From positions 1,061 to 65,060 of the forward strand of contig JACIWK010000003.1 of assembly GCA_014360985.1 (NCBI GenBank): a stretch of DNA of 64,000 nucleotides, written 5' to 3'. Both the position numbers and the translations under genes were made by a program. Source of the stretch: Candidatus Bipolaricaulota bacterium. Its GTDB lineage: Bacteria; Bipolaricaulota; Bipolaricaulia; Bipolaricaulales; Bipolaricaulaceae. The notes under the pieces were generated by a model. The model had not been told where the DNA came from and ran no database searches. It saw only the letters and a list, made by a program, of their open reading frames with translations. Shown here piece after piece: positions 3,339 to 63,718 of this stretch (positions within the stretch are counted from its first letter, which is position 1; each line of letters starts with the position of its first letter).

Positions 3339-7173
<3,835 letters not shown>

Positions 7174-57083: not shown

Positions 57084-57890
57084 CCGGATGCCGATGTCCG
57101 CCCCGGACATCTCCGAGGAGGACGTGCGGGCGGTGGCCGAGGTGGTTCGATCGGGCCGGCTGGCCCTCGGACCTCAAACGGAGGAGTTTGAACGACTCAT
57201 CGCCGAGTATGTCGGGGCGAAGCACGCCGTGGCGGTGAGCTCGGGGACGACGGCGCTCCACCTCGTGGTGCGGGCCCTGGGGATCGGCCCGGGCAATGAG
57301 GTCTTGGTCCCGTCCTTCACGTTCGCCGCCAGTGTGAACGTGATCCTCTACGAGCGAGGAACGCCGGTGTTCGTGGACATCGAACCGGATACGTACAACC
57401 TGGACCCGGAGGACCTCGCGCGCAAGATCACGCCCCGCACGAAGGCGATCCTCGCCGTGGACGTGTTCGGCCACCCGGCGGAATGGGACGCGATCCTGCG
57501 GATTGCGGGTAAGCACGGTCTGCGGGTGATCGACGACGCCTGCGAGGCCCTCGGCGCGGAGTACAAGGGGAAGAAGCTCGGCGGGTTCGGCGACGCGGCG
57601 ACGTTCGCCTTCTACCCGAACAAGCAGATGACCACCGGGGAGGGCGGGGTGGTCGTGACCGACGACGCGGAGCTGGCTTCCCTCTGCCGGAGCCTGCGCA
57701 ACCAGGGCCGGGGGGAGATGGGGTCGTGGCTCGAACACGAGCGGCTGGGGTACAACTACCGGATGACGGAGATGTCGGCAGCGCTCGGGGTGTCGCAGCT
57801 CGCGCGGATCGAGGCTCTCCTCGCCAAGCGGGACCGGGTGGCGCGGATGTACTCGGAGCGGCTTTCGGGCCTGGAGTTCGTCCGCCCGCC
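57067..57890 (+). pseudogene. DegT-family aminotransferase (PglE-like), truncated at the 3' end
   Basis: SSGTTALH, DDACEALGA, FAFYPNKQMTTGEGG, GYNYR; homology stops after LEFVRPP and the ORF runs on as nonsense to 58032. Confidence 0.8.
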
Positions 57891-58220
57891 AGCGCCTTCG
57901 TTCTCCCCTCGAAGCGGGAGGGGCTCCCCCGATCGGTGCTGGAGGCGATGGCGGCCGGGCTCCCCGTGGTGGTCACCGACGTGCGGGGCAACCACGACCT
58001 CGTCGAACACGGGAAGAACGGGTTTCTGGTGAAGGTCGGGGATGTCCACGGCCTCACCGAGGCGTTGGTCGCCCTGGCCCGGGACGGGAAGCTGCGAAGG
58101 CGAATGGGAGAGGACGGACGGGCCAGGGCGAAGGAGTACGCGTTGGAGCGGGTTCTCCAGGAGATGGGGACGATCTACGGGCGGTACCTCACACATGACG
58201 ATGAGGTGAACGGCGGATGA
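57888..58220 (+). pseudogene. 3' half of a GT4 glycosyltransferase fused out of frame to the truncated aminotransferase
   Basis: AFVLPSKREGLPRSVLEAMAAGLPVVVTDVRGNHDLV..G.NGFLV in a different frame. Confidence 0.8.
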
Positions 58221-59761: not shown

Positions 59762-59998
59762 GTGACGCTGCGGGTGAACGTGCATGAGGCCAAGACGCAC
59801 CTCTCGCGACTTCTGGCGCGCGTCGAGGGTGGGGAGGAGGTGGTGATTGCCCGCGCGGGCAGGCCGGTTGCGCGGCTCGTCCCGATCTCGGAGCGACCGG
59901 ACCGACGTGTGCCGGGAACCGCTCGGGGAAAGATCACGATCGCGCCTGACTTTGAGGCTCCGCTTCCGGAATCCGTGCTGCGGGAGTTCGAGGAATGA
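59762..59998 (+). CDS. Phd/YefM antitoxin
   Basis: VNVHEAKTHLSRLL.RVE.GEEVVIARAG.PVARLVP. Confidence 0.92.
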   Translation: MTLRVNVHEAKTHLSRLLARVEGGEEVVIARAGRPVARLVPISERPDRRVPGTARGKITIAPDFEAPLPESVLREFEE

Positions 59999-60381
59999 AG
60001 TGCCTCTTGGACACACACGTGTTCCTATGGTGGGTGGCTGGGGATCGGCGGATCTCGCCCAAGGCGCAGGAGATCATCACCGACGGGCGCAACACGCTCT
60101 ACCTGAGTGCGGCCAGCGGGTGGGAGATCGCGATCAAGGCGGGACTGGGGCGGTTGCTCGTGGCCGACGAGCTCGAGCGGTTCATACCCGAGCAGATGGC
60201 CCTCAACGGGATCGAGGGACTGCCGGTGGCTCTCACTCATGCCCTGCGCGTCGCGGCTTTGCCTCTCCACTACCGCGATCCCTTTGACCGTCTCCTCGTC
60301 GCCCAGGCGGAGCTCGAGGGTTTGGTGGTCCTCACCGGGGACCCCCAGATCGCGGCATACGGGGTAGAGACGCTGTGGTAA
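59995..60381 (+). CDS. vapC: PIN-domain VapC toxin
   Basis: LLDTHVFLW, SAASGWEIAIK, H.RDPFDR.LVAQA. Confidence 0.92.
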   Translation: MKCLLDTHVFLWWVAGDRRISPKAQEIITDGRNTLYLSAASGWEIAIKAGLGRLLVADELERFIPEQMALNGIEGLPVALTHALRVAALPLHYRDPFDRLLVAQAELEGLVVLTGDPQIAAYGVETLW

Positions 60382-60416
60382 AGCAACTATCCGATCTTCA
60401 TCATCCGCGCACCGCC

Positions 60417-61344
60417 GGGGTCAGACCTTCATTCTTAGGGTTTTCCCCGTCTCCGCTCCACCTTCTTCGCGATCGTGCTGATGGTCGAGTAGAGCAACCC
60501 CACATGGGCTCCTACTTCGGTGAGCGTATAGCCGTGCACCCGCACCGCCTCGTGGATGCGCTCGTCGCGGGTCGCCCGGTCGGTGACACCGGCGAACAGC
60601 TCGTCGAGGCTCGGTCGGGCCGCCAGCCGCTCGCGTTGACGGTACTCGGGGGTGAGGGGCTTCTGCTGGAGGCGCGGGCGGAGGCTCTCGACGAACGAGG
60701 GGCGCCCGAGGACCCAACCTGCCTGAAGTTCGTCCCATACCCGCACGCCACGCCCCTGGTGCACGAACCGCCGGTACGCGCGGACAGCGCGCTCCCAGTC
60801 GGAGTCGAACTGGGCGAGGATCCAATCTACGGTGAGGTAGGCGGGCGGCTCGATGTAGCCCGCGGTGGCGCGGTAGCTGCTCCACGGCCAGTCGCGGGGC
60901 ACGCGGACTAGACCCGCACGCACAGGGTTCAGGACGACGTAGCGGGCGAGCTCGAGCAGGTAGCTGTCCTTCTCCACGAGGATGGACTTGAACCGTCCTT
61001 GAAAGAGGTGGCCGATTCGGTCATGGCGGCGGTTGAACCACTGGGTGTACACGCCATTCAGTAGCTGCATTCCACGGGATAGGCTACCCTCGGGGGTCTC
61101 GACCACGAGGTGGTAGTGGTTGTCCATCAGGCAGTACGCGTGGCAGATCCAGCGGTGTCGCGCGACGACGTCGCTCAGCGTGTCGAGGAAGCTCCGGCGG
61201 TCTGCGTCGTCGCAGAAGACCGCCTCGCGGGCGTTCCCGCGGCTGGTGAGGTGGTACAGAGCCCCGGCGTACTCCAACCGCAGCGGTCGAGCCATGGCAA
61301 GGTGAGTATAGCGGCAAGGACCCTAAAAATGAAGGTCTGACCCC
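60417..61344 (-). mobile_element. RAYT-type Y1 transposase unit bounded by 25-bp inverted repeats (1 mismatch)
   Basis: Left 60417-60441 GGGGTCAGACCTTCATTCTTAGGGT; right 61320-61344 ACCCTAAAAATGAAGGTCTGACCCC. Confidence 0.8.
60435..61295 (-). CDS. REP-associated tyrosine transposase (HUH/Y1) with C-terminal HTH
   Basis: RPLRLEY.GALYHLTSRGN, AYCLMDNHYHL (HUH), GHLFQGRFKS, YVVLNPVRAG, WPWSSY. Confidence 0.92.
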   Translation of the reverse strand: MARPLRLEYAGALYHLTSRGNAREAVFCDDADRRSFLDTLSDVVARHRWICHAYCLMDNHYHLVVETPEGSLSRGMQLLNGVYTQWFNRRHDRIGHLFQGRFKSILVEKDSYLLELARYVVLNPVRAGLVRVPRDWPWSSYRATAGYIEPPAYLTVDWILAQFDSDWERAVRAYRRFVHQGRGVRVWDELQAGWVLGRPSFVESLRPRLQQKPLTPEYRQRERLAARPSLDELFAGVTDRATRDERIHEAVRVHGYTLTEVGAHVGLLYSTISTIAKKVERRRGKP

Positions 61345-61361: not shown

Positions 61362-61847
61362 ATGGAGATCAGGAGTGTGGGGATCGAGAAGCCGGATGAG
61401 GTGAACGTGATCCTCGGGCAGGCGCACTTCATCAAGACGGTGGAGGACCTCCACGAGGCGCTCGTGAACGCGGTCCCGGGGGCGAAGTTCGGGCTCGCGT
61501 TCTGCGAGGCGTCGGGCCCGGCCCTCGTGCGGTGGTCGGGCACGGACCCGGAGCTCGTGGACCTCGCAACGCGGAACGCGCTCGCGCTCGCCTGCGGCCA
61601 CACGTTCGTCATCGTCCTGCGGGGGATGTACCCGGTCAACGTCCTCAACGCGGTCAAGCTCGTCCCGGAGGTGTGCCGCGTGTTCTGCGCCACCGCCAAC
61701 CCCGTCCAGGTGATCGTCGCCGAGACGGAGGGGGGACGGGGGATCCTCGGCGTGGTGGACGGCGTGGCGACGAAAGGCGTGGAAGGGGAAGAGGAGATCG
61801 CGGAGCGCAAGGCGCTCCTCCGCCGGATCGGGTACAAACTGGGCTGA
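61362..61847 (+). CDS. DUF355 / adenosine-specific kinase family protein
   Basis: [52 protein letters not shown]. Confidence 0.85.
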   Translation: MEIRSVGIEKPDEVNVILGQAHFIKTVEDLHEALVNAVPGAKFGLAFCEASGPALVRWSGTDPELVDLATRNALALACGHTFVIVLRGMYPVNVLNAVKLVPEVCRVFCATANPVQVIVAETEGGRGILGVVDGVATKGVEGEEEIAERKALLRRIGYKLG

Positions 61848-61877
61848 GTCCCGCCCCGCGGGACAAGGAGGCGCAAC

Positions 61878-63032
61878 GTGAGCACCCGGGTCATGAAGAA
61901 GATCGTCACGCCGTTCGAGACGCTCGGGGTGTCGGGAGCGGTGGTCATGGTCAACCTCTACGACCCCCAGCTTCCCACCGCCGCGCTGTTCCTGGAGGCG
62001 GTCCGCGGCGCGGGGATCCCGGTCCTCGCCTTGGGGAACAAGCTCGATCTCGTGTCCCCGGACGTGGTGGAGCGAGTCCGGGACGAGCTCGGGGTGGATG
62101 TGGAGCCGATCTCGCTCCTCACGGGCGAGAACGTCGCCCGGGCGGCCGCCGCGATCGAGGAGCGGTTCCCCGCTGGGGCCCGGATCGCGGTCCTCGGGGT
62201 GTTCAACGCCGGAAAGACGAGCCTCATCGCCCGCCTCACCGGAAAGGAGCTACGGGTGGGCGACCTCCCCGGCACGACGCTCGAGTTCGAGGAGCATGCC
62301 TGGAACGGGCGGACCCTCATCGACTCCGTGGGCCAGCTCATCGATGTGAACCGCCCGTTCATGGTCGGCTACGACTTCACGGGGTGCGAGGGCCCCGAGG
62401 ACATGTTCGAGCGCGCCCTGCGCCTGGAGGCGGAGGGGATCCTGTCCACCCTCGTCACGGCCCGGAACGGGTTCGTCGAGGCGCTCGCCCGGATCGGCGA
62501 GCGGATCGCAGCCGGAGGGAAGATCGTCACCACCGGGGCCGGGGCCTCGGCCCTCGTGGCGGAGGAGATCGCCGGGCAGTGCTACGAGACGGGCGTTCCC
62601 TGCCTGTGCATCACGAACAGCATGGCCCAGGCGCTGCCGGTGTCGTTCGCCAAGGGCACGGCGGAGGAGGAAGGGGGGCTGGCCCGCTACATCGCGGACT
62701 CCGTGGGTCCAGGGGATGTGCTCATCGGGATCTCCGCCTCGGGGGGGACGGGGTTCGTCTACGAGGCCCTCCGGCTGGCCCGGGACAAGGGCGCGCTCAC
62801 AGTGGCGATCACGGAGAACAGGGACACCCCACTTGGGAAGAACGCCGACGTGGTCGTGAAGAGCAATGCCAAGCCCGAGGGTCCGTCGAGCACCCGGGTT
62901 CAGACGGCCCACCTCGCCCTCGGCCACGCCCTGGTGTGCTCGCTGGCGGCGCTGCGCGGGCTCACCGCGGAGGAGTCGATCCGGTACATGCTCCCGGAGA
63001 AGATCGCCACAAAGAAGATGGGGATCAAATGA
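61878..63032 (+). CDS. Circularly permuted GTPase fused to a SIS (sugar isomerase) domain
   Basis: G4 NKLD, G5 SLL, G1 GVFNAGKT, G2 PGTT, G3 DSVG in cpGTPase order; then GAGAS, GDVLIGISASG.T, TVAIT..DTPL...ADVV SIS motifs. Confidence 0.8.
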   Translation: MSTRVMKKIVTPFETLGVSGAVVMVNLYDPQLPTAALFLEAVRGAGIPVLALGNKLDLVSPDVVERVRDELGVDVEPISLLTGENVARAAAAIEERFPAGARIAVLGVFNAGKTSLIARLTGKELRVGDLPGTTLEFEEHAWNGRTLIDSVGQLIDVNRPFMVGYDFTGCEGPEDMFERALRLEAEGILSTLVTARNGFVEALARIGERIAAGGKIVTTGAGASALVAEEIAGQCYETGVPCLCITNSMAQALPVSFAKGTAEEEGGLARYIADSVGPGDVLIGISASGGTGFVYEALRLARDKGALTVAITENRDTPLGKNADVVVKSNAKPEGPSSTRVQTAHLALGHALVCSLAALRGLTAEESIRYMLPEKIATKKMGIK

Positions 63033-63718
63033 TCCGCGCACTACTCCTCGACCTGGGCGGGCCTGTCTTGAACGAGGACGCGGAGTACGCGAGCTGGGCC
63101 CGGTTCCTCCGCGGAGCGCTCGCGGGGGAGGGGATCGCCGTGCCCGAACAGGAGTTCGCTCGCGAGGTGCGGATGGCGATCTCTCGCTGCGACCCCAACG
63201 CCTACCTCTCCGCGGTGTGGAGCTTTTCGCGCCCGGATGTGGACCGGTTCCGCCGGATTCGGGCTGCGTTCCGGGAGCACGGGCAGGCGTTCGCCGCCGA
63301 TCTCCCCGGCGTGGAGGTCCGCCCCGAGGCGCGGGAGGTCATCCCCGCACTCGCGGACCGGCACCTCCTCGCCATCGCCGCGAACCAGCCCCTGACGGTG
63401 CTCTCTCTCCTCGAGGAGGCGGGGCTGCTGCGCCACTTTCGCTGGCAGCACGTCTCGGATGGGATGGGCGTTGCCAAACCTTCCCCCCTCTTCTTCCGGA
63501 TGATCCTCGACGGGCTCGGGGTGAGGCCAGAGGAGGCGGTGATGGTGGGGGACCGGTTGGACTTCGACATCCACCCCGCGAAGCTCATGGGAATGAAAAC
63601 GATCCGCGTCCTCGTCGGCCCGTACGCTGGCCAGGAGCCGATCTCTCCCTTCCATGTGCCCGACCGGACCGTTTCCACCTTGCGCGAGCTCCTCCCTGCC
63701 CTCGCTTCGCTCCCGTAG
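63029..63718 (+). CDS. HAD-superfamily hydrolase
   Basis: LLDLGG, AKPSP.FF, MVGDR..FDI.PA...GM. Confidence 0.88.
   Translation: MIRALLLDLGGPVLNEDAEYASWARFLRGALAGEGIAVPEQEFAREVRMAISRCDPNAYLSAVWSFSRPDVDRFRRIRAAFREHGQAFAADLPGVEVRPEAREVIPALADRHLLAIAANQPLTVLSLLEEAGLLRHFRWQHVSDGMGVAKPSPLFFRMILDGLGVRPEEAVMVGDRLDFDIHPAKLMGMKTIRVLVGPYAGQEPISPFHVPDRTVSTLRELLPALASLP

Follow-up and report, generated by a model that had tools for sequence, protein, structure and literature searches.

A fused gene at positions 61878-63032 (plus strand) of a 64,000-nucleotide stretch of a Candidatus Bipolaricaulota genome (contig JACIWK010000003.1; the whole stretch is called the window) encodes a circularly permuted GTPase (cpGTPase) that continues without a stop into a SIS domain. 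The protein, called GTPase-SIS here, probably helps to supply the amino sugars of the cell envelope rather than working with the DUF355 and HAD genes that flank it in the window. It is likely to act on, or for, the supply of glucosamine-6-phosphate (GlcN6P) or hexosamine phosphate, and would be an accessory, horizontally spread part of the route from fructose-6-phosphate (Fru6P) through GlcN6P to uridine diphosphate (UDP)-N-acetylglucosamine (UDP-GlcNAc). That the protein is itself a GTP-gated enzyme forming GlcN6P without glutamine is a serious, though tentative, proposal.

The link to GlcN6P begins upstream of the gene. A glmS ribozyme, counted when a match covers the full RF00234 model on the same strand above the gathering cut-off, lies about 100-170 nt upstream of the GTPase-SIS gene in 20 fetched loci from Anaerolineae and a second Bipolaricaulota family, all in clade B of the protein tree described below. 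A whole-genome scan of 26 holder genomes finds exactly one ribozyme above the cut-off in each of G039, G048 and G076-G083, where it precedes GTPase-SIS, and one sub-threshold match (30.7 bits), also before GTPase-SIS, in G042. In the Bipolaricaulota-like genomes G076, G077, G078 and G039, the true glmS is on another contig and has no ribozyme within about 1 kb upstream. Since the sole ribozyme precedes GTPase-SIS and glmS lies elsewhere without one, the ribozyme in these genomes would control GTPase-SIS and not glmS. The loci of these single-ribozyme genomes are L041/L085 (G076), L046/L087 (G077), L052/L086 (G078) and L044/L089 (G039).

Among 41 Anaerolineae relatives surveyed, 30 carry a ribozyme above the cut-off (the genomes are partly shared with the 20-locus set). 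The gene after the ribozyme is GTPase-SIS in 15 of these loci, mostly followed by glmS, whereas it is glmS directly in 14 and neither of them within the fetched flank in one. No glmS ribozyme was detected in the clade A loci scanned. Control of GTPase-SIS by a GlcN6P-sensing ribozyme is predicted for one large subclade, and the link has one origin, yet has been kept across two phyla. Shut-off triggered by GlcN6P fits a producer of GlcN6P, or a positive factor in its formation.

The neighbours of GTPase-SIS, clustered in 43 loci with the key ones named by NCBIfam, include genes for the same route as well as genes that use UDP-GlcNAc. In nine Anaerolineae loci, GTPase-SIS is followed after 25 bp by a true glmS (836 bits). 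A gene above the cut-off of the GlmM equivalog model adjoins GTPase-SIS in Methylomicrobium and in a Pseudomonadota metagenome-assembled genome (MAG), and a PGM_PMM/GlmM-like gene stands beside it in Methylobacter and on two metagenome contigs, one of which has glmM ending 35 bp before GTPase-SIS on the same strand; association with glmM has arisen at least three times. In an Aenigmatarchaeota MAG, GTPase-SIS is placed between Arch_glmU and a GlmM-like gene with overlapping stops and starts, in the slot where glmS is expected. A TviB-like UDP-GlcNAc 6-dehydrogenase gene is adjacent in Gallionella-like genomes, and in Parcubacteria one copy is flanked by lepA/tRNA genes on one side and the L10/L12 genes on the other. 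A 115-kb viral contig (L098, IMGVR_UViG_3300028920_001945) holds GTPase-SIS at 47% identity in a nucleotide-sugar cluster on one strand (38734-59921). Genes for an epimerase, methyltransferase, GTPase-SIS, GNAT (overlapping GTPase-SIS), GT1, NTP-transferase and B12-radical SAM protein are followed there by those for an epimerase, GHMP kinase, GmhA-like SIS protein, transaldolase, PfkB and transketolase. The cluster, which also includes a radical SAM-SPASM gene, looks like a pathway for a modified nucleoside diphosphate-heptose or amino sugar.

The eight holder genomes from the candidate phyla radiation (CPR) and the DPANN archaea all lack GlmS, NagA and NagB but have a phosphohexomutase; set against the presence of GlmS in about half of the Parcubacteria relatives, this absence is suggestive only. 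In the lineage of the window, replacement of GlmS by GTPase-SIS is ruled out by the presence of GlmS in 60 of 61 relatives, window genome included. The GlmS of the genus and of the second Bipolaricaulota family scores about 470-495 bits on TIGR01135, against about 800 in other families of the class, and appears to be a divergent GlmS type.

The GTPase-SIS gene is an open frame of 384 codons with a GTG start, preceded at 7 nt by an AAGGAGG site, and a TGA stop. The following features lie within it.

61887-61916, plus strand: basic N-terminal motif RVxKKxxTPF (residues 4-13), conserved and modelled with low confidence
61935-62336, plus strand: core of the circularly permuted G domain (about residues 20-153), from AlphaFold2 secondary structure and PDB profiles of YqeH, YlqF and RsgA
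62037-62048, plus strand: G4 motif NKLD (residues 54-57), with N54, K55 and D57 invariant
62109-62126, plus strand: G5-like motif ISLLTG (residues 78-83, with S79), from the alignment
62196-62222, plus strand: G1 P-loop GVFNAGKTS (residues 107-115), with G107, G112 and K113 invariant
62268-62279, plus strand: G2/switch I motif PGTT (residues 131-134), invariant
62322-62336, plus strand: G3/switch II motif DSVGQ (residues 149-153), with D149, G152 and Q153 invariant
62337-62393, plus strand: linker LIDVNRPFMVGYDFTGC... from switch II to the N-terminal SIS helix, with D156, P160, M162 and D166 invariant and a predicted local distance difference test score (pLDDT) below 50 at residues 155-163
62394-62990, plus strand: SIS domain of GmhA/MurQ-like fold (residues 173-371), from Pfam, PDB profiles and Foldseek
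Residues 220-224, plus strand: GAGAS, from motif reading
62562-62579, plus strand: EEIAGQ, with E230 and Q234 invariant in alignments of 46 homologues
62652-62678, plus strand: acidic loop KGTAEEEGG, with K259, G260, E263 and E265 invariant, aligned with the MurQ EGAED segment
62733-62753, plus strand: SIS phosphate-binding loop SASGGTG (residues 286-292), invariant
62862-62927, plus strand: SNAKPEGPSSTRVQTAHLALGH, with the KPEGPSS loop and Q342, H345 and H350 invariant in alignments
63009-63029, plus strand: lysine-rich C-terminal tail TKKMGIK-COOH, invariant

Pfam assigns MMR_HSR1 to residues 102-155 (40 bits; cut-off 21.9) and SIS and SIS_2 to residues 188-353 (48.6 and 47.2 bits; cut-offs 25 and 27). 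The FeoB_N model also matches (28.5 bits; cut-off 27), and RsgA_GTPase matches the window protein weakly and its relatives above the cut-off. Outside the G domain, the Pfam and NCBIfam scans show SIS and SIS_2 only, with no RNA-binding or ribosome-binding accessory domain. The order G4-G5-G1-G2-G3 is invariant across 46 aligned homologues, and the GTP-binding residues G107-K113-T114, T133/T134, D149-G152 and N54-K55-D57 are invariant or nearly so. The profile of this alignment aligns from G4 through G3 with YqeH (3ec1), YlqF (3cnl) and RsgA/EngC (1u0l), and the G domain also aligns with Der. Q153 occupies the position of the catalytic Gln of Ras. In the AlphaFold monomer model (pLDDT 82; predicted template modelling score 0.81), the topology is beta4-alpha3-beta5-G4-alpha4-G5-alpha5, then beta1-P-loop-alpha1-beta2-beta3-G3. 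Linker residues 154-171 have low confidence yet are invariant, and lead into a long first SIS helix (residues 173-211). Since the G motifs end and the linker begins at switch II in the model, the permutation break is placed directly after switch II, as in YlqF-type proteins. All Foldseek matches of the C-terminal half are SIS proteins, and no solved chain spans both halves. The gene is under purifying selection, with a ratio of non-synonymous to synonymous substitution rates (dN/dS) of 0.14-0.18 against four close relatives.

The fusion is found well beyond the window. A search of 5.8 billion proteins gives 486 matches, and the best 120 of these all consist of MMR_HSR1 plus SIS, with about 384 residues and 55-97% identity. 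An exhaustive profile search of 1.84 billion representatives at 50% identity recovers a single full-length GTPase-SIS cluster, beyond which come fragments, two members with inteins and a small number of SIS-only relatives, and then generic SIS proteins (E about 1e-14). The constant length of the fused homologues and the single full-length cluster rule out an assembly or frameshift artefact. In searches of 8.4 million papers and preprints, no description came up of the fusion, nor of a glmS ribozyme whose cargo is a GTPase or SIS protein, and sources label the protein "SIS domain-containing protein" or assign it two COG labels; the fusion is thus uncharacterised in the searchable literature. 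The original prediction, made from the letters of the window, had read the permuted motif order and the complete SIS domain without a stop, and had seen no characterised architecture in them; the open frame, Pfam matches, motif positions and homologues agree with it on both counts, and the local mutation or assembly error that it had named as a refutation is not the case.

A scan of the genomes of 185,579 species gives 53 GTPase-SIS loci. The holders are Bipolaricaulota, Anaerolineae/Chloroflexota, Methylomicrobium, Methylobacter, a Gallionella MAG, Patescibacteria, and Parvarchaeota and Aenigmatarchaeota archaea, and 10 of 61 relatives of the window genome have the gene. The tree has two clades: clade A comprises Bipolaricaulaceae, including the window, and Proteobacteria, and clade B comprises CPR bacteria, DPANN archaea and the 23-member subclade that carries the ribozyme. 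Two relatives carry inteins (PF14890 above the cut-off, with homing-endonuclease remnants), which split the P-loop in P0123 (GVFN|SGKT) and the invariant SIS loop in P0122 (KPEGP|SSS). The SIS-only relatives are 42-44% identical to the SIS half, with the linker and C-terminal tail included, and have no GTPase; their existence points to a function of the SIS module of its own. They have 215-238 residues, keep the MGxK tail, and are encoded on metagenome contigs of 1-2 kb (L095 and L096) with no adjacent GTPase, next to a PTPS/QueD gene or small unannotated frames.

The SIS half resembles known single-SIS enzymes without belonging to their families. The nearest solved proteins by PDB sequence profile are GmhA (3e-14) and MurQ (1.7e-13), and the closest folds in Foldseek are MurQ, MurR, KpsF and GmhA (template modelling score to target 0.5-0.86). 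The NCBIfam scores, led by the MurQ model NF003915 (54.4 bits; cut-off 168) and followed by GmhA TIGR00441 (41.3 bits; cut-off 209) and GlmS TIGR01135 (28.9 bits; cut-off 418), are all far below the cut-offs. The invariant Q234 is placed where the catalytic Glu stands in GmhA (Bp E68/Ec E65) and MurQ (E83). These scores, together with the change from Glu to Gln, rule out that the protein is MurQ or GmhA, and membership in the GlmS family is ruled out by its one SIS domain, its N-terminal GTPase and its 28.9 bits. The invariant E230 aligns with His64 of Bp GmhA, while Gln175 and His183 of that enzyme (Ec His180) are retained as Q342 and H350. The SIS half keeps a dense set of invariant polar residues and the Lys-rich C-terminal tail across the 46 homologues. 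Residues map onto SIS1 of GlmS alone, a mapping that is uninformative for catalysis. The anti-phage defence models of PADLOC give no full-length match; the LeoA match (28.9 bits, residues 100-149) is confined to the P-loop, and a defence gene is rejected accordingly.

In the window, the gene lies between two others, with these surroundings.

61362-61847, plus strand: DUF355 gene (PF04008, Adenosine_kin; E 3e-75), a local neighbour and not a conserved partner
61848-61877, plus strand: 30-nt spacer with the hairpin GTCCCGC-ccc-GCGGGAC and then the ribosome-binding site AAGGAGG, from sequence reading
63029-63718, plus strand: HAD-IA phosphatase gene (TIGR02253-like, below the cut-off), whose start overlaps the GTPase-SIS stop as ATGA (translational coupling)

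The order DUF355, GTPase-SIS, HAD recurs in three genera of Bipolaricaulaceae. Five congeneric genomes lack the fusion, and in these the start of HAD overlaps the stop of DUF355 (CTGTGACC, with GTG start and TGA stop sharing GTGA) exactly where GTPase-SIS lies in the window. The coupling of DUF355 and HAD in these congeners indicates an older pair, inside which the GTPase-SIS gene sits. The 30-nt spacer is absent at the empty sites, and its 7-bp GC hairpin is conserved in G008. DUF355 is a core gene, present in 46 of the 61 relatives as against 10 for the fusion, and outside Bipolaricaulaceae the loci examined never have GTPase-SIS beside DUF355 or HAD. The empty sites and the phyletic pattern rule out a functional unit of the three genes. 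The original prediction had rightly seen the upstream DUF355 gene and the translationally coupled HAD gene, but its operon of partners fails on the empty sites and the unconserved neighbourhood; its GTP-gated sugar-phosphate enzyme or sensor remains sensible at the level of domains, whereas nothing was found for the link that it drew to nucleoside metabolism or translation.

Further upstream, at 59762-61295, the region between vanZ and DUF355 contains a Phd/VapC pair and an IS200-like transposase gene (RAYT-type, PF01797). This transposase gene and VapBC also occur in G011 and G012, which lack the fusion, and do not track it; a mobile-element cargo is ruled out on this ground. A glycan gene cluster at 45.9-59.2 kb contains GT4, GT2, Wzy_C, ManC-like, PglC-like Bac_transf, PglD-like, DegT and WecA/MraY-like genes. 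From its position, the window copy of GTPase-SIS is predicted to be expressed as part of the DUF355-HAD operon, which lies where this cluster of genes for UDP-GlcNAc-derived glycans ends. The DegT aminotransferase frame at 57067-58220 matches its relatives to about residue 275 only and continues into out-of-frame sequence, and the overlapping frame at 57726-58220 seems to encode the C-terminal portion of a group-1 glycosyltransferase; the region resembles the joint of a rearrangement, or two remnant genes.

GlcN6P-shut expression and a genomic position like that of glmS suggest that GTPase-SIS produces or promotes GlcN6P. Anatomy, conservation and gene context are what the analysis shows; the scheme that follows, with its substrate, reaction direction and GTP gating, is an inference. 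The C-terminal SIS domain would be the working site, binding a hexose or hexosamine 6-phosphate and yielding GlcN6P without the need for a glutaminase domain, most likely through the amination and isomerisation of Fru6P with free ammonia. The N-terminal permuted G domain would act as a gate. Since an invariant linker connects switch II directly to the first SIS helix, the GTP or GDP state would open or close the sugar site, and the invariant Lys-rich C-terminal tail may take part. In its full form, as a hexosamine entry independent of GlmS in which a single-SIS maker of GlcN6P, fed by Fru6P and ammonia or by salvaged hexosamine, is gated by a cpGTPase, this scheme is put forward with some doubt.

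Several observations weigh against GTPase-SIS as such an enzyme. The RF00234 scans find no ribozyme in the window or in the whole window genome (G000), and the ribozyme link, with its one origin, is confined to one subclade. The gene is dispensable: within the genus, only 4 of 14 genomes have it. Among 101 Parcubacteria relatives, about half lack GlmS yet only 2 carry GTPase-SIS, which is therefore not the general GlmS substitute. Decayed copies exist, namely one interrupted by an insertion sequence (Methylobacter sp. YRD-M1), one frameshifted (G017) and one internally deleted (a Minisyncoccia MAG). All larger genomes have canonical GlmS in addition to GTPase-SIS, and those of Anaerolineae encode both in one operon; a helper or regulator would fit this arrangement no less than a second route. 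With Gln at position 234, any catalysis would need residues other than the Glu of GmhA and MurQ. To our knowledge, Ras-like P-loop GTPases with such a motif set are switches and not parts of metabolic enzymes, and we know of no role of GTP in GlcN6P formation. Moreover, the data consist of MAGs and a monomer model. In the interrupted Methylobacter copy (CP091424.1), a DDE transposase gene splits GTPase-SIS into pieces at 4217-4393 and 5977-6921, and glmM lies directly upstream.

Among the alternatives, the strongest is a sensor or regulator, which is somewhat less likely than the enzyme. Its SIS domain would only bind a pathway metabolite (Fru6P, GlcN6P, N-acetylglucosamine-6-phosphate or UDP-GlcNAc); the ligand would set the GTPase cycle, or the reverse, and the switch would control a partner such as GlmS or GlmM, by a logic analogous to that of RapZ, GlmR/YvcK and GCKR. 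The combination of a switch-type G domain with a ligand-binding one is a classic layout for sensors, the loss of the catalytic Glu agrees with it, and the SIS domains of the pure sensors MurR, NanR and RccR are among the best structural matches. Co-transcription with glmS under the ribozyme in Anaerolineae, yet as an optional gene in the 15-to-14 split, and adjacency to glmM in several lineages also favour it. However, GTPase-SIS is present in the eight CPR and DPANN genomes without GlmS, and is placed among biosynthetic enzymes in the archaeal operon and the viral sugar cluster. The SIS-only relatives retain the same charged constellation, and many polar residues of the SIS domain are conserved as strongly as those of an active site typically are. 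Salvage is improbable. GTPase-SIS would then be a GTP-dependent hexosamine kinase, making GlcN6P from glucosamine and GTP, or a MurQ-like recycler, with the SIS loop holding the 6-phosphate. This fits the ribozyme feedback, the coexistence with GlmS (de novo synthesis plus salvage) and the scavenging CPR and DPANN genomes without GlmS, NagA or NagB, and MurQ is the top match in both NCBIfam and Foldseek. Against it stand the Gln in place of MurQ Glu83 and the 54 bits against 168 on the MurQ model, and we know of no GTPase of the Ras-like class that phosphorylates a substrate.

A unit with DUF355 and HAD that links nucleoside and phosphosugar metabolism to GTP status or translation is very improbable; the tight packing of the three genes, the coupling of GTPase-SIS to HAD and the recurrence in three genera speak for it, but the coupled pair without GTPase-SIS in five congeners largely refutes it, as do the unequal distribution of DUF355 and the fusion and their separation in other lineages. 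Least probable of all is a ribosome-assembly or translation GTPase with SIS as its metabolic input. The alignment of the G domain with YqeH, YlqF, RsgA and Der, the basic N- and C-termini and the Parcubacteria copy beside the L10/L12 genes would agree with it, whereas Pfam finds no RNA-binding appendage, the gene is patchy and dispensable, and its neighbourhoods are metabolic. Furthermore, RbgA, YqeH and RsgA have a hydrophobic residue where GTPase-SIS has Gln after G3.

The synthesis of GlcN6P by GlmS is taken as the universal and essential entry to the precursors of peptidoglycan, LPS and glycans, and is a drug target. If GTPase-SIS does supply GlcN6P, it would be a second participant, linked to GTP and governed by the same riboswitch; the annotation of hexosamine supply in Chloroflexota, Bipolaricaulota, CPR and DPANN would change, and some genomes without detectable GlmS, NagA or NagB would be accounted for. 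GTPase-SIS would also be the first permuted GTPase with a metabolic instead of a ribosomal effector, widening the biology of permuted GTPases beyond ribosome assembly, and would add a second natural cargo to the glmS ribozyme, whose target in some Bipolaricaulota would be GTPase-SIS and not glmS. Such a ribozyme does not mark glmS in every case, which matters for riboswitch-based annotation. New here are the empty-site proof of DUF355 and HAD as bystanders, the one-ribozyme-per-genome result and the Anaerolineae split, together with the inteins, the SIS-only relatives, the viral cluster and the Glu-to-Gln change.

GTPase-SIS shares features with several known systems. Like the cpGTPases YlqF/RbgA, YqeH and RsgA (YjeQ), it has the G4-G5-G1-G2-G3 order and a C-terminal domain attached at switch II. 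Those proteins carry an OB, Zn-finger or helical RNA-binding domain where GTPase-SIS has SIS, and they are universal, whereas GTPase-SIS has Gln after DxxG and is rare, accessory, horizontally spread and set among metabolic neighbours. The single-SIS enzymes MurQ and GmhA, its best matches in sequence and structure, share its fold and phosphate loop but lack its additional G domain, linker and Lys-rich tail. GlmS resembles it in lying behind the glmS ribozyme and beside glmM and glmU, and in its N-terminal accessory domain and C-terminal SIS with a conserved Lys-bearing tail, its SIS1 being the part that aligns. In contrast, GlmS has an Ntn glutaminase domain and two SIS repeats, and GTPase-SIS has a GTPase and one SIS. 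FeoB, with its N-terminal G domain, and IcmF, a MeaB-mutase fusion, likewise have a G domain fused to and gating a non-ribosomal effector; unlike in these, the effector in GTPase-SIS is a soluble SIS domain and the G domain is permuted, and the G domain of IcmF belongs to another class of GTPases. RapZ, GlmR/YvcK and GCKR match the logic of a regulator, as a sugar-phosphate-binding and a nucleotide-binding module together tune GlmS or a kinase, but they have no sequence relationship to GTPase-SIS.

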